A DNA stretch of 64,000 nucleotides from Gemmatimonadota bacterium (lineage in GTDB: Bacteria > Latescibacterota > UBA2968 > UBA8231), in NCBI GenBank assembly GCA_018672475.1, contig JABHFS010000109.1:3713-67712 (forward strand). Reading direction: 5' to 3'. A model generated the notes under the pieces. That model had not been told where the DNA came from and made no database searches. It worked only from the letters and a program-made list of their open reading frames with translations. A program made the position numbers and the translations under genes. Below, piece after piece: positions 2,135 to 52,053 of this stretch (its first letter is position 1; each line of letters starts with the position of its first letter).

Positions 2135-2834
2135 TATGGGTTTGCAGTGATATAGATTGGGGCAGCGGTCTGGTCGCTATGGAAGATGACGGGCATTGCT
2201 TGTTCCTATCGCGGTTTGTATTCCGGCACTCAAGTATGGCGGCTATAGACACAGCGAGCACGGTGCAAAAAATATGCAGGCGCTCGGCATTGGGCAACCA
2301 GCGCATGAGCAGGGAGGCGGCTTGCGGGTTACTCGCGTAACGGACCAACAGGCCTTCCTCGGGCCCGCGGTGTCCCATGCTATTTTCTTTTAGCGTGTCG
2401 GTTAGGGCTGCGATCGACTCGGCGCGTTCGGCTTCCTCGCCTTCGGGGGAAGGCACCAACAATAATGATAGTGGTTCGAATACTTCGCTGACGCGATCCA
2501 TAAGATGCAGCTCGTGCAGCATCTTGTATTCACGCACCGTGTTTTCGGCCCTGAGCGCTTGGCAGCGTTCGAGTTGCGGCAAGACCCCCTTGGGCAAGCT
2601 GGCCTTAAGACGGGCGTGCAATTGGCTGGTGCGTTTGCTGAGGCCTTTGATTTCGCGTTTGATCGTGCGCTTTGTGGATTGTTGGGTTTTTAGTTTTTTG
2701 TCCAGGGTGTCCAGGTGTAGTTGTATTTTCTGCAAAGTGTGCTGGGCCGAGATCGTGTCGTTGTTGAGGCGGCGAAAGTGGTAGACGGCTAGGCGCAGTG
2801 CATTCTTCTCTTCGACTACAGCCTCTTCGACCAA
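1980..2834 (-). CDS. Hypothetical coiled-coil protein with a C-proximal TM helix; start and 3' end uncertain
   Basis: 284-aa ORF with a TTG start at 2834. It has a heptad-like charged N-terminal half and a hydrophobic segment IFCTVLAVSIAAIL. The last ~50 codons overlap the next gene by 155 nt and look low-complexity. Confidence 0.4.
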   Translation of the reverse strand: MVEEAVVEEKNALRLAVYHFRRLNNDTISAQHTLQKIQLHLDTLDKKLKTQQSTKRTIKREIKGLSKRTSQLHARLKASLPKGVLPQLERCQALRAENTVREYKMLHELHLMDRVSEVFEPLSLLLVPSPEGEEAERAESIAALTDTLKENSMGHRGPEEGLLVRYASNPQAASLLMRWLPNAERLHIFCTVLAVSIAAILECRNTNRDRNKQCPSSSIATRPLPQSISLQTHSGPHRQKPIMADKRLGIANRLPNKPEQTRTPEAALDRVEQQTYATVMEHRQ

Positions 2835-3035
2835 GCCAGGATAATCGGTATTGTTCTCGTCGGCGGCGATGAAATTGGCGAATAGACAGCAGGCTTATGG
2901 CGGCGTATTTTCCCTAGTATCGCACTAAATATGCGCGATCGTTGCCAAGGCGGCTGTGAGCGAGGACGCGGCGGATGGTTTGTAGGGTGGCCCTTTGACG
3001 GCTCGAAAAAGCATAAGGTATAAAAGGAATAAGGT

Positions 3036-4748
3036 ATGACGACACTTGTGCATGTCACACACGAAGCGGTGCAGCAGGCCGGTGGAATCGGCACCGTGTT
3101 ACGCGGTTTAATTACGGCCGACAGTTATCGGGATTATTGCCAACGCACTATCCTGCTCGGTCCGCTAACTGATCCCGGTGCCGAGCAACCGCTGGGGCCG
3201 GAGGGGGAAGTGCTCTACGACGCCGATCGGCAGATTCGCACCGGCGAAGTGGCCGATGTATTGAGACGGGTCGAATTCGAGTTTGGTGTGCGCTTGATCT
3301 ACGGGCGTCGTTTGTTGAGCGAGGGGGGGCGTCAGGCGCGCCCGGAAGTTTTACTAGTGGACGTGCGGCATCCACCGCATGGGTTGAATGACTTCAAACA
3401 TGCGCTATTTCAGCATTTCGGTCTGGATTCGCAGCGCTATGAACACCACTGGGAATACGAACAGTATTTGCGTTTGGCCGAGCCTGGTTTTGCCGCGGTG
3501 CAAGCGCTTGTCGGCGCCGAGCCCTTTATGTTGTTGGCTCATGAGTTTATGGGGTTGGGCACAGCTTTTAAGGCCCAACTCAGTGGTAGCCCTGCCTGTA
3601 AAACGCTGTTCTATGCGCACGAAGTAGCTACGGTGCGTCCCTTGGTCGAAGAGGGGCCGGGGCGGGATATTGCTTTTTACAATACATTGCGTCGGGCGCG
3701 GGCGGAGGGGCTGTATATTGATGAGGTACTTGGTCCGCAGGACGCGTATTTCAAACATGCATTAGTCCGTGAAGCTTGGCGTCTCGACGCGGTGCTGGCC
3801 GTGGGAGACTGGGTGGTCGAGGAATTGCGCTTTCTAGGTCCCGAATTCGCCGCGCGCGCTATAGATCTAGTCTACAATGGAGTACCTGCGGTGGATCTGC
3901 CTTTTGCCGATCGGGAAGAGGCGCGGCTAAAATTACAGGCAAGCGGCGCTCAATTATTGGGCTGGACTCCGGATCGGGTCTTTACCCACGTGACCCGTTT
4001 GGTCAAAAGCAAGGGCCTGTGGCGTGATCTGCTAGTCCTCGATCACTTGGATCGCGAGTTGCATAAACGCGGTGAGCAGGCGCTCTTTATCGTTTTGGCG
4101 ACCGAGACGGGGCGGCGTAGCGCGGACGAGGTGCGCCGGATGGGGGCTTATGGTTGGCCGTCGGTGCATCGCGAGGGTGGCGCCGACTTGAGCGGTGGAG
4201 AACTGGAATTTGATTTGCAGGTTCGCGCTTTTAACGGTCGTTCGCGCGCGATCAAAACGCTCTTTGTAAACCAATTCGGTTGGGATCGGCAAAGTTGCGG
4301 TGAGTTTCTGGCGCCAGACGCCGAATTCACCGATTTGCGCCGGGGCAGTGACGTCGAATTCGGGCAGTCGATTTACGAGCCCTTTGGCATAGCCCAAATC
4401 GAACCTATGAGTTTCGGCACGATAAGCGTTGTCAGCGATATATGTGGGTGTGTCGGATTCGTCGACCGGGTGAGGGACCGGCAGGTGCTGGGCGGTTTTG
4501 TCGAAGGGGCCTATACGCGCCTTGATCCGCTGATGGCTGACAGTGGATCAATCGGTGCGGCCGAAGGCGTCAGGGCTGAGGCGATGCAGAGTAAGGTGGT
4601 CGCTGCGGAGTTGGCGCAAAAATTACCCGCCAATAAAAACGAGCGGCGCAAGCTGCTCGAAGAAGGTTTTGCCGTGGCTAGGGAAATGAGCTGGGAGAGG
4701 GTTGTAGAGGATATGTTATTGCCGGTGTTGCGTCGTTTGGAAAAATGA
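3036..4748 (+). CDS. GT-B glycosyltransferase, eukaryotic-type glycogen synthase (GT3)-like
   Basis: 570 aa, AAGGAA SD 6 nt before the ATG. HEAVQQAGGIGTVLRGL parallels the GS motif EVANKVGGIYTVL. GVRLIYGRRLL, LLAHEFMGLG, LFYAHEVAT and YEPFGIAQIEPMSFG parallel the GS blocks YGRWL, HFHEW, FTTHAT and YEPWGYTP. Confidence 0.7.
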   Translation: MTTLVHVTHEAVQQAGGIGTVLRGLITADSYRDYCQRTILLGPLTDPGAEQPLGPEGEVLYDADRQIRTGEVADVLRRVEFEFGVRLIYGRRLLSEGGRQARPEVLLVDVRHPPHGLNDFKHALFQHFGLDSQRYEHHWEYEQYLRLAEPGFAAVQALVGAEPFMLLAHEFMGLGTAFKAQLSGSPACKTLFYAHEVATVRPLVEEGPGRDIAFYNTLRRARAEGLYIDEVLGPQDAYFKHALVREAWRLDAVLAVGDWVVEELRFLGPEFAARAIDLVYNGVPAVDLPFADREEARLKLQASGAQLLGWTPDRVFTHVTRLVKSKGLWRDLLVLDHLDRELHKRGEQALFIVLATETGRRSADEVRRMGAYGWPSVHREGGADLSGGELEFDLQVRAFNGRSRAIKTLFVNQFGWDRQSCGEFLAPDAEFTDLRRGSDVEFGQSIYEPFGIAQIEPMSFGTISVVSDICGCVGFVDRVRDRQVLGGFVEGAYTRLDPLMADSGSIGAAEGVRAEAMQSKVVAAELAQKLPANKNERRKLLEEGFAVAREMSWERVVEDMLLPVLRRLEK

Positions 4749-7099: not shown

Positions 7100-8863
7100 A
7101 TGGAACCGGCAACTGTAGATGTCAACTTGGGGCTTTTCGACGGCGAGGTGAGCCATGCCCGAATAAATACGGCTGTCGCCAAGGGAGACAAGAGCGTCCT
7201 CTTCGGCGAACAGACCCGGTTGCCCTATTTTCCCGATGACGAACCCCTGCCAAAGCTGCATGCCGGTGACCCGTTGGTCCTGCTGTTCTGGAAGGTATTG
7301 CGCAAAGTTCCCGAGAATCTGCGCACCGCCTTGATCGAAGCCCCTTTGAGTCTGACGCTAGTGCGCGACGATACGCTATTGCATTTCGAGAATTACCGTT
7401 GCCATCAAGCGCTGCATATCGGTTGTCGCCGCCGTACGATCTATCTGCCCGAAATACTCCTGCACGCTGCCGAGGATCGCGGCTACGACTATTGGGCGAT
7501 CGCCGAGGGCGTCATCTACGCGGGGTGGATGATCATGGACTATCTGCTGTTGGTAGACGTGCTCAAGGAATACGCCGAACTGGCGCGCAAACTGCCTGGG
7601 TATCGCCTGGGCGAGGCATTGCAGACCCGCTTGGTCGATGACCACAACAACCACCGGCGCGATCACGCGTCGGCGGGGCGTTCGGAGGTCGCTGAGTTTA
7701 TTGACGGATATAAGGGAAAACTATTAAGGGTAACGCCCGAGCAAGGGGCGAACGAGGATGTGTTCGCTCTGGCGCGCGGCATCTTCGACTCGGAGTTGGA
7801 ACAGCGCTGGGCCCATGACAAGATGGAACGCATAGCGCAGGTCTTCAGCTACCCCCGGCTCTTTCTCTTCGATCGCGATATCATCCACGGCACCGCCCGC
7901 GCGTTGGCCGAGGCCAAAGGGCTCGAGATTGAGCCTCGGAGCTTTGCTGACGCACTGCACGATTACCACGACGTGCTGCGTTTCGAGTCGCATCCGCTGA
8001 TGACGACCTTGGGTAAGGCCGTGGTGCCCAAACCGCGGGCGGTATTTTTGCAGACCGTCGTGCGCCTCGGGATCATCGGGTTGCGCGGGTTTTTCGAAGC
8101 GTATGGTCGTGACGAACCGGGGGTGCGCGACCTGGTGCATCCGTTGTGGATGTATCTGTGCTCGCTCAGTTCTGATCCGGCGGGGATCTTTTCGCGGGCG
8201 GGGCGTTTGCGGGCGGTGGGACGCGAGGCGCTGGACGAGACACTCGATGGCCACCTCGCCGGTGTGCTGATCCGCCTAGACGGGGCGGAAAACTATATGC
8301 AGTTGGTCCGCGAGGTAGCGGCGATGGGGGAAGTCGTGCGTGCCGAATTACAGGCGTTGATCTCCGTCCAGCGCTTGCTCGAAGAGGACGAGTGGGAAGC
8401 TTTTAAGGGGCGCAAGCAGGCGATCGTCGCCAACGCCTGTCGGGCCCTTGAAGACCTCTCCAGCAGCGAAGATGGCGGCGCGTCGGAGCGCGTCAATTTG
8501 CACGAGGACGAGAAAATTCGATCGCTGATCTCTGATCGTCCGCATCGCTTGACCTCGGATCCCAGTGGAGTAATGATGTATTTAAGGACCTATAAGAATT
8601 CGTTGAACCGCTTCGGGGCGGCTGACCCGGATTCGGATTTTCTGTTGGCCTCGATCCTGGTGCGGTTGGACCAGGCGGACGAGTATCCCGAATTGCTCGA
8701 ACGGGTGTTTGAAATCGGCACGCCGGCCTTTACGGCGCTGCACAATGTCTTTGAGCAGATACCCGAGCGCGATATGAAAAAACGGGAAATACTCAAACAG
8801 GCGCGGATCCTTTGGAGCAGATTGCTGGCCAAAGCCCGGGCTAAGACGAAGGGGGGAAAATGA
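7100..8863 (+). CDS. Hypothetical cytoplasmic protein, 587 aa, no recognised domain
   Basis: Long ORF with protein-like composition. GGAG immediately precedes the ATG. The stop overlaps the next start (ATGA at 8860-8863). Confidence 0.7.
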   Translation: MEPATVDVNLGLFDGEVSHARINTAVAKGDKSVLFGEQTRLPYFPDDEPLPKLHAGDPLVLLFWKVLRKVPENLRTALIEAPLSLTLVRDDTLLHFENYRCHQALHIGCRRRTIYLPEILLHAAEDRGYDYWAIAEGVIYAGWMIMDYLLLVDVLKEYAELARKLPGYRLGEALQTRLVDDHNNHRRDHASAGRSEVAEFIDGYKGKLLRVTPEQGANEDVFALARGIFDSELEQRWAHDKMERIAQVFSYPRLFLFDRDIIHGTARALAEAKGLEIEPRSFADALHDYHDVLRFESHPLMTTLGKAVVPKPRAVFLQTVVRLGIIGLRGFFEAYGRDEPGVRDLVHPLWMYLCSLSSDPAGIFSRAGRLRAVGREALDETLDGHLAGVLIRLDGAENYMQLVREVAAMGEVVRAELQALISVQRLLEEDEWEAFKGRKQAIVANACRALEDLSSSEDGGASERVNLHEDEKIRSLISDRPHRLTSDPSGVMMYLRTYKNSLNRFGAADPDSDFLLASILVRLDQADEYPELLERVFEIGTPAFTALHNVFEQIPERDMKKREILKQARILWSRLLAKARAKTKGGK

Positions 8864-9951
8864 GGGGATTCGTCGCGATAGTTGCGACCACCGTAGGTTT
8901 GGCGGCATGGGGTTGTTTGCCTTTTGGCGGCGGTCGACCGCAAAGCGCGGAATTGACGGCGGCAGCTCGAGAACTGGTGCAGGTCGCCCAGGGCAGTGGT
9001 GCAACGATCGACTGGATCGGGTTGCGTGACGGTGGGGGCGACCGGAGCGAGGCCGTCAAGGTGCTAGATGATTATTTGGTGTCAGCGCTTTTACAAGCCG
9101 AAGTGGCGTTGGTTTTGGCGGACACGGTGGGTGGGAAGTGGTCAGATGGCGGCGTGCTCGACTTAAACCGGGGCGAGGGAGCGTTGGTTTTGGGCGGGCG
9201 TTTGCAGGGGGATGCCCCCTGGATGTACGTGCGGCTCTTCCTCGTTGAGAGAGACGGCGGCAAGCTCGTGGCGAAGCGAACGGTTCGGGTGCCCGAAAGC
9301 GAAGTTAACGACGAAGTGGCGCTGCGTGCGAAGGCCAACGGCGGTGCGGATGACACGATCCCGGTACAGGCTGACCTGCACTTGATCGTTAAGCGGGTAG
9401 AAGGCGGTGTCGACGAGATCGTTGAGCTGGCCGAGGGCGCGCAACTGCAACAAGGGGATCGATTGCAATTGCGCTATAAACTGCACAGGGACGTCGAGGT
9501 CTACGCTTTCCTCTATGATTCGGAAGGCACGCTCGAAGTGGTGGTCCCGGAGCAATTCGTCTATTCGGGGATCGAGCAATATGGGCCCAGCGAAAATGGC
9601 TGGATTACCCTACAGGAGAGCGACCGGGTCTACACACTTTATTTTCTCGCCGGGCCGCGCCTCTTGGAGGAAAATACCGGCGAGCTCTTTGAGCGACTCG
9701 GTGAACTGATTCAACAGCGCCAAGTCGATCGCTTCAATGGGTTGGAAAATATAGACCAAACGATCGTGGAATTTCTCCGGCGCTCCTACCAGGAGGACTC
9801 GGTCATCGCAGTGCAGAGGGGAAGCGAGGGGATCGCGGTGGGGCGGCCGGAGACGATCGTCTACGACGACGGTACTCGTCTGCCGAGTCAGGCGGAAATA
9901 CTCAAGGGCACGCCCGTGCTGGCGCGTGCCCTGAGTTTTTCGGTGCAATAA
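8860..9951 (+). CDS. Lipoprotein-like protein with a DUF4384-like C-terminal region
   Basis: Signal plus Cys: MRGFVAIVATTVGLAAWGC. GDRLQLRYKLHRDVEVYAFLYDSEGTLEVVVPE and RVYTLYFLAGP resemble the DUF4384 core (GD.i.i.v....gYlyvf..d..G....lfP). Confidence 0.65.
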   Translation: MRGFVAIVATTVGLAAWGCLPFGGGRPQSAELTAAARELVQVAQGSGATIDWIGLRDGGGDRSEAVKVLDDYLVSALLQAEVALVLADTVGGKWSDGGVLDLNRGEGALVLGGRLQGDAPWMYVRLFLVERDGGKLVAKRTVRVPESEVNDEVALRAKANGGADDTIPVQADLHLIVKRVEGGVDEIVELAEGAQLQQGDRLQLRYKLHRDVEVYAFLYDSEGTLEVVVPEQFVYSGIEQYGPSENGWITLQESDRVYTLYFLAGPRLLEENTGELFERLGELIQQRQVDRFNGLENIDQTIVEFLRRSYQEDSVIAVQRGSEGIAVGRPETIVYDDGTRLPSQAEILKGTPVLARALSFSVQ

Positions 9952-30442: not shown

Positions 30443-30512
30443 GATGTTTATCCCGTCAAAGAGGGTCGATTTCCCAGATGATATGACCTCGTGGCAGATG
30501 TGTCAATCGCGC

Positions 30513-30541
30513 TTGCCCGCACGGGGTTTAGGGCCTATCCT
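30513..30541 (+). promoter_or_regulatory. Candidate sigma70-type promoter of the DUF2231/HK/EBP operon (possibly a leaderless transcript)
   Basis: TTGCCC (30513-30518), 17-nt spacer, TATCCT (30536-30541). The ATG at 30548 lies 7 nt after the -10 and no SD is visible. Confidence 0.35.
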
Positions 30542-30547
30542 TCGAAG

Positions 30548-30976
30548 ATGGATTGGCACCCCCTTATCGTTCACTATCCCATCGCCTTGTTGCCCTTGAG
30601 CCCGTTGTGCGATCTGGTCGCGTTGTGGTCGCGGCGAGGCGAAGGACACCTGCTCGCCTATGGGTTGATGGTCCTCGGGACCCTGGCATCATGCGTCGCG
30701 GTGCTCAGCGGCAATGCCGCGGCCGAAGGCCATTGGCAGGGGGCTGCCGCCGGGGAGATTTCGGCGCATGAGGACCTGGCGACATGGACTATGTTATTGG
30801 CCTTAGGCACGACGTTGGGGCGATTGCCCTTGCAGTTGAAGGGGGCAATGGACGGTAAGGCGCTTTACGCGTGCATCGGGATGGGCATACTGATCGGCGT
30901 GTTAGTGGCGTTGACCGGTTATCGCGGGGGCGAATTGGTTTATGTGCATGGGATAGGTGTGGTGACGGGTGGCTGA
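30548..30976 (+). CDS. DUF2231-like integral membrane protein
   Basis: MDWHPLIVHYPIALLPLSP is the typical DUF2231 N-terminus. Four hydrophobic helices. Overlaps the kinase GTG start by 8 nt. Confidence 0.7.
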   Translation: MDWHPLIVHYPIALLPLSPLCDLVALWSRRGEGHLLAYGLMVLGTLASCVAVLSGNAAAEGHWQGAAAGEISAHEDLATWTMLLALGTTLGRLPLQLKGAMDGKALYACIGMGILIGVLVALTGYRGGELVYVHGIGVVTGG

Positions 30977-32990
30977 CTTCACACCGGATATCGTTCCGGT
31001 CAGGCCCACGGCGCTCAAACCCGGTTATTTGGCCGCTCTCTTTGCGGTGCTGGCCGTCGTTTTGGGCGCCTTTGCTCTATATGGGCTACAACAGGAACGA
31101 CGATCGACATTGGAAACGATGGAACGCGGTGCGCGGTCGCTGGCTGAGGCGGTGTCCCGTGCGGAGGAGAATGTGTTGCGCGCCGAAGCCGATATGGAAG
31201 CGCTCGTCGGCGAGCGCTTGCTCGACAATGCGCGGTTGCTTGCGGAGTTGGGCAGTAGGCAGGCCTTATCCGATACGCTTATCGAGCGTTTGGCAGCGGA
31301 GCATGAACTAGATCAGGTGGACGTGTTGGATCTGGAGGGTCGGCTTTTGGCGTCTAGTGGCATTGTCGATGATGACGAACTAGATGGTTGGCAGGAGGGT
31401 TTGCAGCGATTGTTCGCCGGTTTGGAGCAAGCGCTGCTATTTGAATTAGATCAACGGCTCTTTGCCGTCGCGGTGGCGATGCGCAATGGGGGGGTGGTGA
31501 TCGTGCGGGCGTCTGCCGAGCGGCTTTTAGAATTGCGGATTCGTTCCGGGGCCGGTAGGCTGATCCAGGAGATCGGCTCTAATAAAGGCGTCGTATATAT
31601 GGTGTTACAGGATTCGCTGGGTGTGTTGGCCGCCTCCAGCGACGTGGTGTTGATCGACCCGATAACCGGCGACACCTTCCTCGAATCGGCGTTGGTCAAA
31701 GATTCGGTGGACTCGCGGTTAGTCACCTTTGAGGGCCAACAGATTTTTGAGGCAGTGATTCCTTTCGCGCCCGAGGGCGAGACGCTCGGCCTACTGCGGA
31801 TCGGCCTTTCGCTCGACGAGCTTCGTGTGCAAGAGCGGCGCGGCAGGCTGCAGGTGTTGTTGTTGGTATTGCTGTTGTTGGTGCTCGGAGCGGTCGGTGC
31901 AGGCGCGGTGACGGTGCGGCAAAACCTGTCCCTGCTCGGCGATGCCTATACCCGTATTCAAACGTATAGCAGCCGGATTTTGACCCAGATGGCGGACGCC
32001 GTTATCGCCACGGACCCGGTCGGGGTGATCGAGGTGTTCAATCAGGCGGCAGAAGACCTGTTGGGTGGCGATCGCAATGAAGTTCGGGGGCGGCGCTTAC
32101 AAGAGGTCTGGCCGCACGAGATTGTCGACCGGGCATTACAAGGCGAGGAGTTGCTCGGGGCCGTTTGCCTATATACGAATAAAGAGGGTGGTGAGCGGAC
32201 GCTCGCGGTTTCGAGCTCGCAGGTGCGCAACGCCGACGGCGAGGTGGAGACGATAGTCTTGGTCGTTCAGGACTTGAGCGAAAAGGTAGCGATGGAGGCG
32301 GATTTGAGACGACGAGACCGCTTGGCCTCAATGGGGGCTTTGGCGGCGGGGGTCGCCCACGAAGTACGCAACCCGCTCAATGCCATAAGCGTCATAGTAC
32401 AGCGGCTGCGACGCGAGTTCATCCCGCAGCAGGATAAAGAGGAATACGGCCAATTGACCGGTGTCGTTTCGGAGGAAGTCAAGCGGGTCAATCGCATTAT
32501 CGAACAATTTCTCGAACTAGCGCGCCCACCGGCCCTGGCAAAGGAGCGAGCAGACCTTGCGGCGCTTTTGCAACGGGCGGCGCAGACCATCGAACCTCGC
32601 GTCCTGGCGACGGGTTTGCGTTTGCAGCGAGATTTCAACGATGTCGGTGCAGTCGAAGTCGATGCAGATCAGTTGCAACAGGCGTTGCTGAATTTGTTGG
32701 GCAACGCCATAGAGTCGATGGAGTCGATGGACGAGGAGGCGATCAAATTGGCGGCGCGCTCCCTCGCGGATGGCTGGGTGGAGATCACCGTCGCAGATAC
32801 GGGTCCCGGCATACCTCCGGCGGAGCTCGAACGAATTTTTGATTTGTATTTTACGACTAAGGCCGAGGGCACGGGGCTGGGTTTGAGTATAGTGCACCGC
32901 ATCGTCTCCGAGCACGGGGGCCGGATTGAAGTGCAGAGCGCGCTGGGCGAGGGCACTCGATTCACCATTTTATTGCCGAGGGGGTGTTGA
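30969..32990 (+). CDS. Sensor histidine kinase (two TM segments, PAS, HisKA, HATPase_c), NtrB/ZraS/AtoS-like
   Basis: H-box GVAHEVRNPLNAI, N-box LLNLLGNAIESM, G1 DTGPGIP, G2 GTGLGLSIV. PAS-like segment ILTQMADAVIATDPVGVIEVFNQAAEDLLG. Confidence 0.9.
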   Translation: MADFTPDIVPVRPTALKPGYLAALFAVLAVVLGAFALYGLQQERRSTLETMERGARSLAEAVSRAEENVLRAEADMEALVGERLLDNARLLAELGSRQALSDTLIERLAAEHELDQVDVLDLEGRLLASSGIVDDDELDGWQEGLQRLFAGLEQALLFELDQRLFAVAVAMRNGGVVIVRASAERLLELRIRSGAGRLIQEIGSNKGVVYMVLQDSLGVLAASSDVVLIDPITGDTFLESALVKDSVDSRLVTFEGQQIFEAVIPFAPEGETLGLLRIGLSLDELRVQERRGRLQVLLLVLLLLVLGAVGAGAVTVRQNLSLLGDAYTRIQTYSSRILTQMADAVIATDPVGVIEVFNQAAEDLLGGDRNEVRGRRLQEVWPHEIVDRALQGEELLGAVCLYTNKEGGERTLAVSSSQVRNADGEVETIVLVVQDLSEKVAMEADLRRRDRLASMGALAAGVAHEVRNPLNAISVIVQRLRREFIPQQDKEEYGQLTGVVSEEVKRVNRIIEQFLELARPPALAKERADLAALLQRAAQTIEPRVLATGLRLQRDFNDVGAVEVDADQLQQALLNLLGNAIESMESMDEEAIKLAARSLADGWVEITVADTGPGIPPAELERIFDLYFTTKAEGTGLGLSIVHRIVSEHGGRIEVQSALGEGTRFTILLPRGC

Positions 32991-32991
32991 T

Positions 32992-34350
32992 ATGGCCGGA
33001 GACACGATTCTGGTTATTGACGATGAGGCGTCGCAGCGCGAAGCGGTCGGCGGTTATTTGCGCAAACGTGGATTCACCGTTTTGCAGGCCGATAACGGGC
33101 GGCGGGGATTAGAGATATTGCAAGGGCAGGTCGTCGATTTGGTCATCACCGATCTGCGTATGCCAGAGCTCGACGGGATGGGCGTGCTCGAAGCGGCTCG
33201 CCAGACCAACCCGGATATCGGCGTGGTACTGGTCACGGCTTTTGGCTCAGTCGACGGAGCGGTCGACGCGATGCAAGAGGGGGCTTTTCACTATTTGGAG
33301 AAACCGATTGACCTCGATGAGTTGGATGAGATCGTCGATCGCGCGCTGGAGCGTAGCCATCTAGTCTCGGAAAACGAGTTATTGCGCGAGCGTATCGGCG
33401 GAGGTGCACAATTCGGCGGTATAATCGCCCGCGACCCCGCGATGGAAGAGGCGTTGAATGTCGTCGCGCGCGCCGCGCCAAGCCGGGCGACGGTGCTGGT
33501 CAGGGGAGAGTCGGGCACGGGCAAGGAATTGGTTGCGCGGGCGGTGCACGACGCGAGTCCGCGGGCGGACAAACCCTTTGTCGGGGTTAATTGCGCCGCA
33601 CTCAACAAGGGGCTAATAGAAAGTGAGCTTTTTGGCCATGAGAAGGGCGCTTTTACCGGTGCAATTGACCGTCGGGTCGGGCGTTTTGAGCAGGCGAACG
33701 GCGGCACGTTATTTATCGACGAACTGGCTGAAATTCCCGCCGAAGTGCAGGTAAAGCTTCTGCGCGTTTTGCAGGAGCGCAAAATAGAGCGGGTTGGTAG
33801 TGGCACAGAGATCGAGGTCGACGTGCGTTTGATCGGGGCGACGCACCGCGATTTACAGGGGCTGGTCGCTGATGGCGGGTTCCGCGAGGATCTGTTCTAC
33901 CGGCTCAATGTGGTTTCGGTGCAGTTGCCGCCGTTGAGAAGCCGCAAGCGAGATATTCCCGTGCTCGTCGAGCATTTCCTAGCCCGCTACGCCGAAGAAA
34001 ACGCCAAGACCATCGAAGGGGTTTCGAAAGAGGCGATGGATCTTTTGATGCGCTACGTCTATCCGGGTAATGTGCGTGAGTTGCAGAATATTATCGAGAG
34101 GGCGGTGGTTATGGCACGCGGCGATGTCGTGACGAAGAATGATTTGTCGCTCGAAGGGCAAGAAATGCAAAGTGCCGCCGAGTCGCTGCCGAGCGGAACG
34201 ACCTTGTCGGAGCAAGTTGAAGACTTAGAGAAAAAGGCCATCGCCGAGGCTTTGCAGCAAGCTAATGGCATCCAGAGCCGGGCGGCCGATATCTTGGGTT
34301 TGACCGAACGCAATCTGCGGTATAAGCTGAAGAAATACGGGCTGAAATAG
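32992..34350 (+). CDS. Sigma54-dependent response regulator (NtrC/ZraR family enhancer-binding protein)
   Basis: Receiver ILVIDDEAS...VITDLRMPELDG. AAA+ Walker A GESGTGKE, sigma54-contact loop GAFTGA, Walker B LFIDEL. Fis-type HTH SRAADILGLTERNLRYKLKKYGL. The ATG is 1 nt after the kinase stop. Confidence 0.95.
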   Translation: MAGDTILVIDDEASQREAVGGYLRKRGFTVLQADNGRRGLEILQGQVVDLVITDLRMPELDGMGVLEAARQTNPDIGVVLVTAFGSVDGAVDAMQEGAFHYLEKPIDLDELDEIVDRALERSHLVSENELLRERIGGGAQFGGIIARDPAMEEALNVVARAAPSRATVLVRGESGTGKELVARAVHDASPRADKPFVGVNCAALNKGLIESELFGHEKGAFTGAIDRRVGRFEQANGGTLFIDELAEIPAEVQVKLLRVLQERKIERVGSGTEIEVDVRLIGATHRDLQGLVADGGFREDLFYRLNVVSVQLPPLRSRKRDIPVLVEHFLARYAEENAKTIEGVSKEAMDLLMRYVYPGNVRELQNIIERAVVMARGDVVTKNDLSLEGQEMQSAAESLPSGTTLSEQVEDLEKKAIAEALQQANGIQSRAADILGLTERNLRYKLKKYGLK

Positions 34351-34557
34351 ACGCTTAGTTGACCGTGCGGCGCGGACAACTAAGCATGTGCGTCGACTAG
34401 TGCGATACTGTTATAGATGACCCGCAGTATTCGATCTAACTCGACGGGTGCGAGACGTGCGATCAATGATGGCGGGGACGGAGTAACACGCGGGTGGGCG
34501 GATGTCGGGTATGGCTGGCCGAAGTTCCCATCCGGGCGGTCACATAATCGATGAGTT

Positions 34558-34586
34558 GCTGTAGGTGTTCTACCTACACCTACAGC
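34558..34586 (-). terminator. Stem-loop just downstream of the beta-barrel gene (no U-tract)
   Basis: GCTGTAGGTGT (34558-34568) and ACACCTACAGC (34576-34586) form an 11-bp perfect stem with a 7-nt loop, 9 nt after the stop at 34595. No T-run follows on either strand, so terminator function is uncertain. Confidence 0.35.
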
Positions 34587-34594
34587 ACTTCTCT

Positions 34595-35695
34595 TCAAAA
34601 GCCCAATTGTAGACCGATTGTATACGACCGCGCGGTGGCGTCGTAGAAGACGTCGTTGGAGTCGATATCGCGGTAGAGCCATTCCAATTCGACACCGGCT
34701 TCCTGGATCCATGAGTTTACCGGATAGAATGTTCGGCCCAGCCCCAAACGCAGGGTCTGGCGGTTTTCTGATGCCGAGTCTCCGGTGGGGAAACCACTCA
34801 GGTCATAGGCCGGCCGGTTGCTGTAATGACGGCTTTCGCGCTGGAAAGAGGCCACTAGCTCGCTCTGCCACGGCGCCAGGTATTTCAAGGTTGTGCCGAG
34901 TTGTTGGCCGTCATAGCTAAATTGGTCGTCGAAGAGATCGTCGTCGGGGTTGTAGAATAACAGGTCGGCAAAGCGGCTCTGGCCGGTGAAGCTCTGCCGG
35001 TGTTGCCATTCGAGCTGTAGGCCGGCATTGGCGCCTAGGGACTGGGCGGCTTTGAGTCGGCTGACTCCTTGCAGTAGGTGGTGGTCTTGGTCCGATCGGG
35101 CGGAAAGATCGAAGAAAGGATCAGCCCCGCTCGCTTGCGTATAGGATTTGAGGCCCAATTCGCCACCGAATTGCAATGTAGTGCGTGTCGGCAGGACATG
35201 GGTGAATTGCGCATTGAGGCGTTGTTCGACATAACTGTAGTCGTTGGCGTTGAGGAAATTCTGGTAGTGCAGGTTATAACCGATGCGGCCGAGCAGGTCG
35301 GGGCGCAGATAGGACTTGAGAGTGGCAAAGGCGCGGCCCTCGGCGAAGTCGCGATAGTCGTAGAGCGGGTGGTCCAGGCGCAACCCCGTTTCAAGGCCGG
35401 CGACGAGTAGGTCGTCGGTGCGCAAGGGGCGCGTATAGCTCAAGCCAAAGGTGTGCAGGTGGCTGAAGAGGTCGGTGTTTTCGCTGAAGAGACTGGCGCT
35501 GCCCGAGTAGTAGAGGCCGAGATCCTCGTTGACGACGTAGTCGAGATCGACATAGCTGGCATTGACTACGTCGCCGCGTTGGGTCGAACTCAGGAAGAGA
35601 TTGTCCGTATAGGTCGTATACAGGTTTACATTGGGTATGATTTGCGCATCGGCGACGGAGACTAACGCGGTGAGAAGGGCCAGGCAATATTTCAT
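34595..35695 (-). CDS. Outer-membrane beta-barrel candidate, unknown family
   Basis: Signal MKYCLALLTALVSVADAQ. Alternating-hydrophobic strands throughout. C-terminus YTIGLQLGF ends in Phe, as in many OMP beta-signals. The ATG overlaps the upstream stop (ATGA). Confidence 0.65.
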   Translation of the reverse strand: MKYCLALLTALVSVADAQIIPNVNLYTTYTDNLFLSSTQRGDVVNASYVDLDYVVNEDLGLYYSGSASLFSENTDLFSHLHTFGLSYTRPLRTDDLLVAGLETGLRLDHPLYDYRDFAEGRAFATLKSYLRPDLLGRIGYNLHYQNFLNANDYSYVEQRLNAQFTHVLPTRTTLQFGGELGLKSYTQASGADPFFDLSARSDQDHHLLQGVSRLKAAQSLGANAGLQLEWQHRQSFTGQSRFADLLFYNPDDDLFDDQFSYDGQQLGTTLKYLAPWQSELVASFQRESRHYSNRPAYDLSGFPTGDSASENRQTLRLGLGRTFYPVNSWIQEAGVELEWLYRDIDSNDVFYDATARSYTIGLQLGF

Positions 35696-36384
35696 TTGCG
35701 TCCTCTGCGTTTTTTGTCGCGTTCGGGGTCATCTTGTCGCAAGCGCGAAGGCAAGCTCCGCCGTGGCGGTCCGACCTTAGACCTTTTCTGCAATCGCAGT
35801 CCCGGTGGGCCTCGTTTCTTGTGCAATAGGCGGGCATCATCAATGCCATCGCCGTCTTCGTCAAAAAAGTAGTCCATGCGGCGGTCCATTATGCGCATGC
35901 GTTGATGCAGTCGTTTGAAAGGATCGTGCATACCGTCGCCGTCTTCGTCGAGGAAGCGTTTGACCGGGTGGCCGCGCTCCTCAAAGATACGACCGAAGCG
36001 ATAGCCCTTTAAGCCGCGCGGCCCGTATTTTTCGCCGGTGATATCGTTGATATTGTCGCCCTCGAAGTCGATGATATTATCGACGAAGCCGTCCTTATCC
36101 GAGTCTATGAAACGCCCGTCTAGGTCATTGACGCCGTCGCCGTCCTTATCGCGGAAGTGGTCATTGAGCCCGTCCTCGTCCGCGTCTACAAAACTAAAGT
36201 GGTGTGGATACGGACGCTGCCCGATATCGTTGCGGCCGTCGCCATCGTGGTCGCGAAAGTGGTCGTTGAGGCCGTCGCGGTCCTCGTCGACATAGCCGAC
36301 GACGTCGGGGGCGGATTGTTGCTGTTGCGCGCCGACGGGCAGCGTCGACAGGGCGAGGGCGAATAACGCGAAAAGCAAGAGCAC
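35692..36384 (-). CDS. Secreted acidic protein with thrombospondin-type-3-like Ca-binding repeats
   Basis: GTG start at 36384 with AGGAGA upstream. Signal LLLFALFALALSTLPVGAQ. Five DxDxDGxxD-type repeats: DEDRDGLNDHFRDHDGDGRND, DADEDGLNDHFRDKDGDGVND, DSDKDGFVD, DEDGDGMHD, DEDGDGIDD. Confidence 0.7.
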   Translation of the reverse strand: MLLLFALFALALSTLPVGAQQQQSAPDVVGYVDEDRDGLNDHFRDHDGDGRNDIGQRPYPHHFSFVDADEDGLNDHFRDKDGDGVNDLDGRFIDSDKDGFVDNIIDFEGDNINDITGEKYGPRGLKGYRFGRIFEERGHPVKRFLDEDGDGMHDPFKRLHQRMRIMDRRMDYFFDEDGDGIDDARLLHKKRGPPGLRLQKRSKVGPPRRSLPSRLRQDDPERDKKRRGRK

Positions 36385-36402
36385 GGTTTAGGTCTCCTGA
36401 CA

Positions 36403-36450
36403 AAAGGGAATGCGGGGTCGAGCCTAATCGCTCGACCCCGCATTCCCTTT
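36403..36450 (-). terminator. Strong intrinsic terminator/attenuator hairpin between the LTXXQ gene and the Ca-repeat gene
   Basis: Perfect 21-bp stem, AAAGGGAATGCGGGGTCGAGC (36403-36423) with GCTCGACCCCGCATTCCCTTT (36430-36450), and a 6-nt loop. On the minus-strand transcript the stem runs into CCCUUUUG. Confidence 0.7.
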
Positions 36451-36460
36451 AATATACGGT

Positions 36461-37033
36461 TTACTCGGTAGAGGGTGCATCGGTTTCCGGCGTTGGCATT
36501 GCTCCTCTGCCGCCCTGTCGACCGCCTTTGTGCCCGCGGTGGGGTTTTTCGTAGCCAGCATCCTTGAGTGCCTGGCGAATTTCCGCGCGCGTTGCCCCCT
36601 CGGTTTTGAGGTCGTCGACGAGTGCTTTGATCTCTTCACGTTGGGCTGTCCGCTCGGCTCGTTGGCTTTCGCGCTGGGCGGCACGTTTGGTGAAATCTTC
36701 GGGTAGTTCGACGCCAGCCGCGGTGAGTTCGGTCGTTAATGCAGCGCTGATTTCTTCGGCGGAAGCGCCTGATTCGCGCAAGGCGCTGAGTTGGTCTTTG
36801 AGCTCGCTGCGTTGATCCGCAGTCAATTGTTCGGCGAACGCGGCCCGGCCCGGCTTATGACCGCCGCGACGATGGCGCGAGGCCTGGCCATCGCTGATGC
36901 CATCGGCATTTTCATCTGCGACGAGGGTTTGCGCCGATTGGCGCCCTCTGCGTTGGGCTTCTGTTTCACTGAGCGCGCCTCCGGCAACCACGAGGGCTAA
37001 GGCAAAGGCGGCGAGTTGATTGATCCGTTGCAT
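36461..37033 (-). CDS. Periplasmic helical protein with an LTXXQ motif (Spy/CpxP/ZraP-like)
   Basis: ATG at 37033 with GGGAG upstream. Signal MQRINQLAAFALALVVAGGALS. EQLTADQRSELKDQL carries one LTXXQ motif. Basic Gly/His-rich ends (RHRRGGHKPGR, HRGHKGGRQGGRG). The track ORF's 68 upstream codons are rejected. The gene lies behind a sigma54 promoter. Confidence 0.65.
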   Translation of the reverse strand: MQRINQLAAFALALVVAGGALSETEAQRRGRQSAQTLVADENADGISDGQASRHRRGGHKPGRAAFAEQLTADQRSELKDQLSALRESGASAEEISAALTTELTAAGVELPEDFTKRAAQRESQRAERTAQREEIKALVDDLKTEGATRAEIRQALKDAGYEKPHRGHKGGRQGGRGAMPTPETDAPSTE

Positions 37034-37125
37034 GGTATTGCTCCCTGATGAATTAAATCGTGTGTTGATTTTTGCGTTGTGTCGAATATCGACTGGGCCC
37101 ATTGCCGATGTTCTACCAGAGATAA

Positions 37126-37141
37126 TGCAAGGTGCGTGCCA
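37126..37141 (-). promoter_or_regulatory. Sigma54 (-24/-12) promoter
   Basis: The minus strand reads TGGCAC-GCACC-TTGCA, an exact match to the TGGCAC-N5-TTGCW consensus. It lies about 90 nt upstream of the ATG at 37033. Confidence 0.8.
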
Positions 37142-37229
37142 GGGTGTAATGATTGAATAAATTAAATGTAAATAATTGTTTACTATTGACTTGTGTGGGT
37201 TGTGAGTGCGACGTGTTCCCCAACACACT

Positions 37230-37247
37230 TTCGACATCCTGGTCGAA
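37230..37247. promoter_or_regulatory. Dyad TTCGAC-N6-GTCGAA, candidate enhancer (UAS) site 1
   Basis: cacTTTCGACatcctgGTCGAATG, centred about 100 bp upstream of the -24 element. Confidence 0.55.
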
Positions 37248-37308
37248 TGTATTCGATTGATCAGGGTCTTTTAGGCTCTATGGTTATATGTCACAAGAGG
37301 TTATCACT

Positions 37309-37326
37309 TTCGACGATTTGGTCGAA
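37309..37326. promoter_or_regulatory. Dyad TTCGAC-N6-GTCGAA, candidate enhancer (UAS) site 2
   Basis: cacTTTCGACgatttgGTCGAATG, with the same flanks as site 1. It is 79 bp further upstream, about 180 bp from the -24 element. Confidence 0.55.
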
Positions 37327-37576
37327 TGCACCCGGGCAAAATCGTCGAAAAGGGCAGGGCGGGGCTAGGGGCTGTTATCGATTGCGTTATTGCAGCCATC
37401 TTATAGGCGCTGCATCTGAATGGTTTTGCTGTGGTCTTTTAATAATGCGTTCGAGGTCCCTGTGCGCAGCCTTGACCACTCCCTGGACCAATTTGGCGTT
37501 GAACTGTGGTTTAAATACTGCGACCATTAGATGCTCTTATATGAGACGTTATTCGTCGAAGTATTCGGTGGGACGC

Positions 37577-50382: not shown

Positions 50383-50398
50383 TGGCACATAGCTTGCT
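50383..50398 (+). promoter_or_regulatory. Sigma54 (-24/-12) promoter of the flgF operon
   Basis: TGGCAC-ATAGC-TTGCT, an exact consensus match, about 50 nt upstream of the ATG at 50449. Confidence 0.8.
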
Positions 50399-50448: not shown

Positions 50449-51240
50449 ATGATCGAAGGACTATTTATCTCAGCATCGGGCATGTTGCCAAAGGCTACGC
50501 AACAAGAGTCGATTGCAAATAATCTTGCAAATGCCGAAGTACCTGGTTTTAAAAAGGATAACCTCTTTATGCGCGAGGTGCGCGAGGCGATGAAACGGCA
50601 ATCTGGCGACTATCCAGATTGGCGCATCAATCGCTTTGAAGGGGCCTGGACCGACCATGAGCAAGCCAGATTGCGCAAAACAGGCGATGTATTCGATATG
50701 GCTTTAAGCGGCAAAGGTTTCTTTGCGCTACAGACGTCTTCTGGTGTGCAATATACCCGCAATGGCAATTTTTCTAAAAATGACCAGGGCATGTTGGTCA
50801 ATCCGCTGGGGCATCAAGTCCTCGATGAGGGTGGGGCGCCGATCGTTATACCTGAAAACATAACAGCGCCGATCATCGATGGGGCAGGGGTTGTGCGAGT
50901 GCGCGATGAAGCCACGGGGGAAGATACCGTTATAGCTACGATACAAATAGTTGATTTTCCAGAGCTTTATGATAAAAATGCTATGGCGCAGACCCCCTAT
51001 CAGAATCCGCTAAGAAAGTCCAAGGACGGGCTCTTTATTCCTCACCCCGCGACCTCACAGGTACCGGCTGATGAGGTGGAAATTGTACAGGGGTTTTTAG
51101 AAGAGTCGAATGTTGAACCGGTATTGGAAATGGTCAGAATGATCGACACTTTCCGCTCCTACGAGGCGGAACAACGAGCCATTCAGGTCCAAGACAGCAC
51201 TTTGGAGCGGGCCGTCAACGATCTCGGTCGCGTCAGTTAA
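50449..51240 (+). CDS. flgF: Flagellar basal-body rod protein FlgF
   Basis: N-terminal SIANNLANAEVPGFKK rod motif and a conserved C-terminal helix. Lies directly upstream of flgG. Confidence 0.85.
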   Translation: MIEGLFISASGMLPKATQQESIANNLANAEVPGFKKDNLFMREVREAMKRQSGDYPDWRINRFEGAWTDHEQARLRKTGDVFDMALSGKGFFALQTSSGVQYTRNGNFSKNDQGMLVNPLGHQVLDEGGAPIVIPENITAPIIDGAGVVRVRDEATGEDTVIATIQIVDFPELYDKNAMAQTPYQNPLRKSKDGLFIPHPATSQVPADEVEIVQGFLEESNVEPVLEMVRMIDTFRSYEAEQRAIQVQDSTLERAVNDLGRVS

Positions 51241-51264: not shown

Positions 51265-52053
51265 ATGAGTAGGGCACTGTATACCGCGGCCACAGGGATG
51301 ATCGCTCAGCAGATGAACGTCGATAATATTGCCAATAACTTGGCGAATGTTAATACGACGGGTTATAAGAAGAGCAAAATGGAATTTCAGGATTTGCTCT
51401 ACCAACAATTGCGCCTTGCCGGTGCGACACAAGCCGAGGGCGCCCAGGTGCCGGTGGAATTGCAAATCGGCTATGGCACGCGCCCCGTGGCAACACAGCG
51501 GATCTTCTCGCAGGGCACCATCGTGCCGACGGGTAATCCACTCGACGTTTCGATCGACGGCAATGGCTTTTTACAGGTGACCTTGCCCGACGGTACGACA
51601 TCCTTTACTCGCGACGGGGCATTGAAGATGGGGTCCGACGGCACCATCGTCACCTCTGACGGTTATGCGCTCGAACCGCAAATCACCGTGCCGCAGGATG
51701 CTACGGATATCAATATCTCGTCCAATGGCGAAGTGTCCGTCAAGCTCCCGGGTACTGCGGCCTTTCAGACGGTGGGGCAGTTGGAACTGGCTCGATTCAT
51801 CAATCCGGCCGGCCTCAAGACGATCGGGCGGAACCTGATGCTCGAGACGCAAGCCTCGGGTGTGGCGATTATCGGCGCGCCGGACGGAGAAGGATTCGGC
51901 AAGCTGTCGCAGCGCTTTTTGGAACTGTCGAATGTGGAAGTAGTCGACGAGATGGTGAGCATGATCGTCGCCCAGCGGGCCTATGAGATCAATTCCAAGG
52001 CGATTCAGACTTCCGAGGAAATGCTCTCGAACGCCAACAACCTGAAGCGATAG
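51265..52053 (+). CDS. flgG: Flagellar distal rod protein FlgG
   Basis: ALYTAATGMIAQQMNVDNIANNLANVNTTGYKKSKMEFQDLLYQ and C-terminal LELSNVEVVDEMVSMIVAQRAYE are close to E. coli FlgG. Confidence 0.95.
   Translation: MSRALYTAATGMIAQQMNVDNIANNLANVNTTGYKKSKMEFQDLLYQQLRLAGATQAEGAQVPVELQIGYGTRPVATQRIFSQGTIVPTGNPLDVSIDGNGFLQVTLPDGTTSFTRDGALKMGSDGTIVTSDGYALEPQITVPQDATDINISSNGEVSVKLPGTAAFQTVGQLELARFINPAGLKTIGRNLMLETQASGVAIIGAPDGEGFGKLSQRFLELSNVEVVDEMVSMIVAQRAYEINSKAIQTSEEMLSNANNLKR

Follow-up and report, generated by a model that had tools for sequence, protein, structure and literature searches.

Does a two-component system with an NtrC-type regulator control a group of envelope genes that converges on it, and if so, is it a ZraSR/ZraP system under another name? 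The question is raised by a locus of an uncultured marine Latescibacterota bacterium, whose genome (6.6 Mb in 210 contigs, 56.5% G+C) contains rpoN and encodes 16 full enhancer-binding proteins. To our knowledge, no cultured member of the Latescibacterota serves as a model, and next to nothing is known of how their genes are regulated. The stretch that we analyzed, here called the window, is 64,000 nucleotides long (contig C32:3713-67712). It carries a histidine kinase and regulator on the plus strand, and on the minus strand a sigma-54 promoter preceded by two dyads and followed by genes for a small helical protein, a loop protein and an outer-membrane barrel. We consider it likely, from comparison of sequences, that these genes form a sigma-54-dependent two-component envelope-response module that follows the logic of ZraSR/ZraP and has its own regulator lineage, its own operator and other outputs.

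A sensor-regulator operon opposite a sigma-54 promoter

The main elements of the locus are as follows.

30491-30976, plus strand: DUF2231 membrane protein (Pfam PF09990, 53.9 bits), first gene of the sensor operon
30969-32990, plus strand: sensor histidine kinase, with a transmembrane helix, a periplasmic domain, a second transmembrane helix, PAS, HisKA and HATPase_c (Pfam)
32992-34350, plus strand: NtrC-type response regulator (enhancer-binding protein), with REC, a Sigma54_activat AAA+ domain containing GAFTGA, and a Fis-type helix-turn-helix (HTH_8)
34595-35695, minus strand: outer-membrane beta-barrel of 366 aa, third output gene, with a signal peptide, 16 predicted strands and a C-terminal Phe
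35692-36384, minus strand: acidic secreted protein of 230 aa, second output gene, with seven DxDxDGxxD loops
36461-37033, minus strand: secreted helical protein of 190 aa, first output gene, with a signal peptide
37034-37115, minus strand: predicted 5' leader of about 82 nt, containing the palindrome GTCGATATTCGAC and, about 7 nt ahead of the ATG, AGGGAG
37126-37141, minus strand: sigma-54 promoter TGGCACGCACCTTGCA (TGGCAC-GCACC-TTGCA, the -24 and -12 elements), exact consensus with zero mismatches
37142-37225, no strand: AT-rich spacer between dyads and promoter, 64% A+T compared with 43% for the window
37230-37247, no strand: proximal enhancer dyad TTCGACCAGGATGTCGAA (TTCGAC-N6-GTCGAA)
37309-37326, no strand: distal enhancer dyad TTCGACCAAATCGTCGAA (TTCGAC-N6-GTCGAA), 79 bp from the proximal dyad
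37339-37350, read on the minus strand: extra half-site TTTCGACGATTT, forming a larger inverted repeat with the distal dyad

A preliminary description of this DNA had placed a DUF2231 protein, a PAS/HisKA kinase and a GAFTGA-containing NtrC-family regulator in one operon. Every element is found where it was placed: the kinase start overlaps the DUF2231 stop by 8 nt, and the regulator begins 2 nt past the kinase stop. The DUF2231 gene, whose likely start is the ATG at 30548, is limited to the closest relatives; tblastn matched it in two related loci (L019 and L020) and found no match in L014-L018. The periplasmic domain of the kinase, about 265 aa long, resembles sCache_3_2 in Pfam with a score below the cut-off. 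The regulator contains all three parts of an NtrC-type protein, namely a receiver (PF00072, 96 bits), a sigma-54 AAA+ domain (PF00158, 236 bits), in whose translation GAFTGA can be read, and a Fis-type helix-turn-helix (PF02954, 51 bits). A dyad scan of the window found none belonging to the regulator operon itself.

The promoter lies about 2.8 kb from the regulator operon on the opposite strand, and it is the exact match that had been described there. By itself, this match is not beyond chance in 64 kb (3 matches at one mismatch or fewer, 1.65 expected); its significance comes from its conservation in relatives, described below. The dyads stand out more clearly, as TTCGAC-N6-GTCGAA occurs twice in the window against 0.21 expected and its half-sites, TTCGAC/GTCGAA, six times within 350 bp against 0.39 expected. 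One further half-site lies inside the leader. The description of the two dyads as identical was slightly overstated: there are two, and their arms are identical, but their spacers differ (CAGGAT and CAAATC), and the 24-nt units are 83% identical. The -24 element begins 97 bp downstream of the centre of the proximal dyad. The AT-rich spacer is a possible bending region; it contains no match to the integration host factor (IHF) consensus, which is that of E. coli. From the GC of the -12 element at 37127-37128, transcription would start near 37115.

A second exact sigma-54 promoter of the window, TGGCACATAGCTTGCT (50383-50398, plus strand), stands about 50 nt before two flagellar genes.

50449-51240, plus strand: flagellar rod gene, flgF/flgG type
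51265-52053, plus strand: flagellar rod gene, flgF/flgG type

Flagellar rod genes of this type are a classic sigma-54 target. Since the same consensus precedes them, we take it to be valid for this host, whose flagellar genes look sigma-54-dependent from their upstream sequence.

Promoter, dyads and gene order are conserved in relatives

The whole block, with the kinase and regulator facing the barrel, loop protein, small helical protein and promoter, and then a TRAP transporter, is present in 10 other genomes of the genus. These relatives keep TGGCAC-N5-TTGCT together with a perfect TTCGACCAAATGGTCGAA or a one-base variant of it, and across relatives TGGCAC-N5-TTGC(T/A/G) is found at the same place. 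In eight of them the dyad is centred 95-98 bp ahead of the -24 element and in a ninth 85 bp ahead of it, and the distal second copy, GCGACCATTTGGTCGAA, is likewise present.

The arrangement extends beyond the genus. Using the genus alignment of the barrel (A2) as query, we searched for related loci. A metagenome contig whose barrel is 41% identical (L077) carries the same five genes, and its promoter region holds the dyad CTCGACCATTTCGTCGAA, a degenerate second copy and TGGCACGTTCCTTGCT. In a locus from another Latescibacterota family, f3 (L026; kinase 42-44% identical), TTCGACCGGGCGGTCGAG and TTCGACCAGATGGTCGAG are found 120-141 bp upstream of TGGCACGCCCGTTGCA, and the promoter is followed by three small secreted helical proteins and a barrel. 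Two of these three helical proteins pass Pfam Metal_resist (PF13801; 54 and 71 bits, cut-off 29.2) and LTXXQ. The same contig encodes, at 2178-4427 on its minus strand, a 749-aa protein that by eye has an ECF-sigma-like start, then ankyrin-like repeats and an F1-ATPase beta-like region.

The first gene behind the promoter varies among relatives. A syntenic relative protein passes PF07813 at 37 bits, and in six congeners the slot holds a different LTXXQ-repeat protein of 211-356 aa, of which both of the two scanned pass PF07813. By these comparisons, the first-gene slot is conserved and its occupant varies. In f3 and in a further family, f2, the barrel gene comes right after the helical gene. 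The f2 locus L023 has, in the region 8760-8900, a direct repeat of about 45 nt (…GATCGGGGCAACGGGGAGGGATCACGACCC…) before the helical-protein gene, where neither a sigma-54 promoter nor dyads are found.

The recognition helix and the dyad travel together

Among 25 genomes of the host genus, the 11 that have a kinase orthologue (68-97% identity) are exactly those that have the barrel. An exact overlap of this kind has a chance of 1/C(25,11) = 2e-7, a figure uncorrected for phylogeny. A genome without the block has regulator paralogues that are only 47% identical. In two genus genomes the kinase orthologue is broken over two reading frames (G009:C1:1875887-1877883 and G023:C97:3404-5376), either as a frameshifted pseudogene or through an assembly error.

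TTCGAC-N6-GTCGAA is rare in the host, with just three copies in the 6.6-Mb genome. The looser TCGAC-N6-GTCGA has 86 genomic sites, and a sigma-54-like promoter lies downstream only at the window sites, at a site on contig C63 and at one weak case (C141). When metagenomes were scanned for the perfect dyad, most of the 120 loci were coding coincidences (the 18-mer can be read as Phe-Asp-Gln-Met-Val-Glu). Nevertheless, in 19 of the 120 a sigma-54 promoter is found no more than 260 bp away on one side, with about 0.5 expected, and in 16 of these 19 the distance is about 100-114 bp. Most of the promoter-bearing contigs, soil contigs among them, carry one operon that encodes a 133-aa secreted Gly/Met-rich protein, a kinase and a regulator. 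This recurrent operon is found, among others, on L085, L086, L107, L116 and L123, with a perfect TTCGACCAAATGGTCGAA, a sigma-54 promoter and a 133-aa protein whose N-terminal part is Gly/Met-rich.

The regulators of these metagenomic operons are 55% identical to that of the window and have the same recognition helix (…ERxLRYKLKKYG). The helix-turn-helix of the window regulator (…SRAADILGLTERNLRYKLKKYGLK) is kept in its orthologues as well as in these homologues beside the same dyad, and the other enhancer-binding proteins of the host have different recognition helices. Helix and operator thus travel together across distant lineages, which is the best evidence short of a binding assay that the regulator reads the dyads. 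We infer that the adjacent regulator binds dyads of the type TTCGACC-N4-GGTCGAA.

Three output proteins from families without annotation

None of the three output proteins matches a Pfam or NCBIfam family, and none has a paralogue in the host genome. The first had been described as a secreted helical LTXXQ protein with Gly/His-rich basic ends. Its signal peptide, an LTADQ and the Arg/Gly/His-rich ends are indeed there, but membership of the LTXXQ (Spy/CpxP) family does not hold: the protein has a single LTADQ, gives no match at E<=1 to PF07813 (gathering cut-off 24.3 bits) or PF13801, and its helical core matches no fold in the PDB at E<1, including Spy, CpxP and ZraP. Against E. coli ZraP, its profile reaches an hhalign probability of 0.3%, and a profile search of PDB sequences returned designed helical repeats only. 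The protein consists of a DENADGISD loop, a basic HRRGGHK stretch, the LTADQ, two 'GA(S/T)xxEI...AG.E.P' units and a basic Gly/His tail. Its 41 homologues are all unannotated; invariant in their alignment are the DENADG..D loop, the HRRGG basic stretch, L..xQ and the two 'GA(S/T)xxEI' units. AlphaFold2 models a helical core at residues 62-165 (pLDDT about 90) between disordered basic tails. Compared with the Metal_resist proteins of L026, hhalign gives 92% (E 5.5e-7), for the N-terminal 80 residues only.

The second protein had been called a thrombospondin-type calcium-binding repeat protein. This name is not sustained: searches found zero Pfam families at E<=1, so that thrombospondin type 3 repeats (PF02412) fail, and zero PDB sequences at E<=10, and the likeness comes down to the generic DxDxDG motif. 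The body of the protein has a net charge of -21, and a polybasic tail carries +14 over the last 45 residues. Relatives conserve it at 60-97% identity.

The third protein was correctly described as an outer-membrane beta-barrel. It has a signal peptide, a closed barrel of 16 strands in the AlphaFold2 model (pLDDT 89, pTM 0.82) and a Gly-Phe terminus; its homologues are all unannotated. Foldseek places AlgE- and OprD-type barrels at the top (E about 1e-9, TM about 0.55), a generic likeness.

What would these proteins do? The signal would be divalent cations or envelope damage, and we suggest as the output a periplasmic chaperone or cation buffer with an outer-membrane partner. Another function is possible, and we hold it to be unlikely: the circuit would stand, but the barrel would export or anchor the DxDxDG-loop proteins, giving an inducible Ca2+-dependent surface structure for adhesion, matrix formation or host contact. 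The barrel is always found beside a DxDxDG-loop protein, which is a separate seven-loop protein in the genus, while in f2, f3 and the contig L076 the helical protein itself carries the loop at its N-terminus and, in one case, at its C-terminus too. In addition, the loop-protein and barrel genes overlap by 4 nt and would be translationally coupled, the polybasic tail could dock to an anionic surface, one relative gives a weak match to the Slam barrel model (E 0.055), and many relatives bear titles of metagenome-assembled genomes from marine-animal metagenome projects. However, the barrel is no closer to known secretion barrels than its generic likeness, the syntenic first genes of relatives are bona fide LTXXQ/Metal_resist proteins, which are periplasmic in known cases, and the links to ECF sigma factors described below fit envelope stress better. 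In its widest form the idea is a doubtful one. The helical protein with its N-terminal loop, the seven-loop protein and the dedicated barrel would then make up an inducible Ca2+-dependent system of the outer membrane or cell surface that has not been described before and is confined to Latescibacterota and their neighbours. The barrel would export or anchor the loop proteins, and control would come from a cascade from sigma-54 to an ECF sigma factor, at whose head would stand a widespread regulator lineage that has no name yet (operator TTCGACC-N4-GGTCGAA). For the three outputs, we prefer the chaperone or cation-buffer function.

A hairpin between the first and second output genes

Two hairpins lie within or beside the output genes.

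34557-34587, no strand: hairpin with a 12-bp stem, from a terminator-like scan, between the regulator and barrel genes, which converge and are 244 bp apart
36403-36450, minus strand: hairpin between the first and second output genes, a perfect 21-bp stem with a 6-nt loop, then UUUUGU

The hairpin at 34557-34587 is likely the end of the output operon and may act as a terminator in both directions. The stronger one, through which the promoter had been proposed to lead into the loop-protein and barrel genes, is indeed present with its perfect stem, and both genes are kept downstream in relatives; folding gives -51.6 kcal/mol over a 101-nt stretch. A strong hairpin of unrelated sequence is found at the same spot in every relative examined, mostly without a U-tract. 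It would act by partial termination or by stabilizing a 3' end. We found no sigma-70-like promoter between the first and second output genes, and the barrel start overlaps the stop of the loop protein. Because of this lack of a promoter, this overlap and the constant position of the hairpin, the most economical reading is that the three output genes are one transcription unit, whose structured 3' end or partial stop would give more of the small protein. The additional loop-protein and barrel genes appear to be conserved parts of that unit.

Could the hairpin instead be a full terminator, leaving only the 190-aa protein in the sigma-54 unit, with the loop protein and the barrel expressed separately? 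The perfect 21-bp stem followed by UUUUGU and the retention of a hairpin at this spot would agree with this. Yet the next start codon comes only about 20 nt after the hairpin, with no sigma-70-like promoter there or in the preceding gene of the same strand, and the order of helical gene, loop gene and barrel is kept down to 41% barrel identity. Moreover, the helical gene directly precedes the barrel in f2 and f3, and most of the relatives' hairpins have no U-tract. We regard full termination as improbable and retain a single transcription unit.

A second dyad-bearing promoter precedes an ECF sigma gene

The dyad occurs a third time in the genome, at C63:162121-162138, as the same 18-mer as the distal dyad of the window. 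It is followed after about 72 bp by a degenerate dyad and after about 97 bp more by TGGTAC-N5-TTGCA, a sigma-54-type promoter (TGGTACGGCCTTTGCA) about 45 nt before an ECF sigma gene. Each element is arranged as at the window promoter, but the flanks show no similarity, which rules out a recent duplication as the origin of the site. The larger envelope regulon that had been proposed for this locus is plausible, since a second dyad-bearing sigma-54-type promoter fronts an ECF sigma gene, and the same regulator probably turns on this operon, judging by the shared layout. An enhancer-binding protein encoded 10 kb from the C63 site was set aside as its regulator, as its helix-turn-helix differs.

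The C63 locus (C63:159986-162140; L040) encodes the ECF sigma factor, then a small open reading frame (ORF), then a secreted helical protein with Gly-rich ends, and a divergent RND efflux pair starts at C63:162985. A conserved ECF sigma gene of the genus (C123:20150-20936; L042-L060) has its own sigma-54 promoter, TGGCACGATTATTGCT, here TGGTACGGTTCTTGCT. Two CTCAGA-N2-TCTGAG dyads lie upstream of it; these differ from the window dyads and point to a different activator. On a JGI metagenome contig (L076 350-560; barrel 27% identical), a helical protein with a DxDxDG loop is followed by a barrel, an ECF sigma factor and an enhancer-binding protein for which no receiver family is on record, and the module is preceded by two GGAAC-N18-GTCTAA motifs that resemble an ECF promoter. 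From their gene neighbourhoods, such output modules appear to be repeatedly tied to regulators of the envelope-stress type.

We consider it very improbable that the adjacent kinase and regulator are unrelated to the promoter and that another of the 16 enhancer-binding proteins activates it: that number of candidates and a regulator operon 2.8 kb away, convergent and without a dyad of its own would allow it, but the co-occurrence in the genus is perfect, L077 has the same pairing and the soil contigs have dyad, promoter, kinase and regulator, in another gene order, as one operon, the recognition helix is conserved together with the dyad, and the other host proteins have different helices, with CTCAGA-N2-TCTGAG used at the one such ECF promoter examined.

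A model for the circuit

Our model suggests that the kinase would use its Cache-like domain, about 265 aa long, to sense a signal in the periplasm and would phosphorylate the NtrC-type regulator. The regulator would then bind the TTCGACC-N4-GGTCGAA-type dyads, whose centres lie about 123 and 202 bp before the predicted start, and its GAFTGA AAA+ ring would contact RNA polymerase-sigma-54 at TGGCAC-N5-TTGCA across the AT-rich spacer and open the promoter. The resulting transcript would encode an abundant small secreted helical protein, and the hairpin would pass only part of transcription on to the translationally coupled DxDxDG-loop protein and 16-strand barrel. The same regulator would probably also switch on the paralogous ECF sigma operon.

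Several observations weigh against this model or parts of it. The co-occurrence of kinase and barrel is weakened because the kinase-regulator and output genes are adjacent and may be gained or lost as one block, and many of the remaining TCGAC-N6-GTCGA sites lie inside Asp/Val-rich coding sequence. The f3 genome G026, whose assembly is fragmented, has at least 29 regulator paralogues, none with the same helix. Family f2 has the pair of helical protein and barrel without this kinase, the dyads or the sigma-54 promoter, so that dependence of the outputs on this regulator is not general. A chaperone role for the 190-aa protein is suggested by its position and its relatives, termination at the hairpin is uncertain because most relatives' hairpins have no U-tract, and an orthologue of the dyad-bearing ECF sigma factor was not found in other genomes, where only the other paralogue (54% identity), the one with CTCAGA-N2-TCTGAG dyads, came up.

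Comparison of sequences alone thus gives a regulator, a predicted operator, a promoter and a small regulon for Latescibacterota, and ties three annotation-free protein families to a putative envelope response. The regulatory logic is conventional; the value of the locus is that of a well-defined entry point rather than a surprise. It also suggests that a design of the ZraSR/ZraP type exists outside Proteobacteria, in a distinct lineage that uses an operator of its own.

Comparison with known systems

The ZraR regulator of E. coli depends on sigma-54 and has a very small regulon, with zraP, zraSR and mgtA as direct targets (PMC7657598). The zinc-induced ZraPSR system of E. coli and Salmonella is seen as an envelope stress response (PMC7657598, PMC12314577), comparable to CpxPAR (PMC12314577). 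The likeness to ZraSR/ZraP that had been proposed for the window holds for the logic of a complete sigma-54 two-component circuit and not for membership. As in ZraPSR, a kinase is paired with an NtrC-type sigma-54 activator, two inverted repeats lie upstream of a -24/-12 promoter before a secreted-protein gene, and the main target is a small helical protein that is secreted and whose ends are rich in Gly and His. The regulator and E. coli ZraR are 48% identical. In contrast, their recognition helices differ. The regulator scores 455.9 bits against the ZraR equivalog (NF007689; cut-off 760), and the kinase 208.5 bits against ZraS (NF007688; cut-off 479), in a match that spans residues 440-671 only. 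The periplasmic sensor is larger here and Cache-like, and the operator is TTCGACC-N4-GGTCGAA, compared with CGAGT-N7-ACTCG in the E. coli zraP-zraS region. Here, the target shares no intergenic region with the sensor operon, where no autoregulatory site was seen. The target protein itself is not detectably a ZraP homologue, as the Pfam models, hhalign and the fold search all fail, and the circuit includes two more envelope genes and probably an ECF sigma operon.

In NCBIfam the best matches are AtoS, at 303 bits for the cytoplasmic PAS-HisKA-HATPase part of the kinase, and AtoC, at 509.7 bits for the regulator over its whole length, which is more than ZraS and ZraR reach. Both scores are far under the cut-offs of 646 and 714, and unlike in AtoSC, no genes for acetoacetate or short-chain fatty acids lie nearby and all targets are envelope proteins.

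An ECF sigma gene under sigma-54 control is known from E. coli, where QseF/GlrR activates the rpoE P2 promoter. The promoters of C63 and of C123 and its orthologues resemble it in having a sigma-54 promoter and activator sites ahead of an ECF sigma gene, while the activators and operators differ.

The window also resembles the metagenomic operons for the 133-aa protein: in both, a perfect dyad lies at a similar distance from the promoter, the regulators, 55% identical, have one recognition helix in common, and the kinase gives a weak sCache_3_2 signal. Their target is a different small secreted protein, without a Pfam family, and they have neither loop protein nor barrel. As kinase and regulator lie within the target operon there, those systems would be autoregulated.

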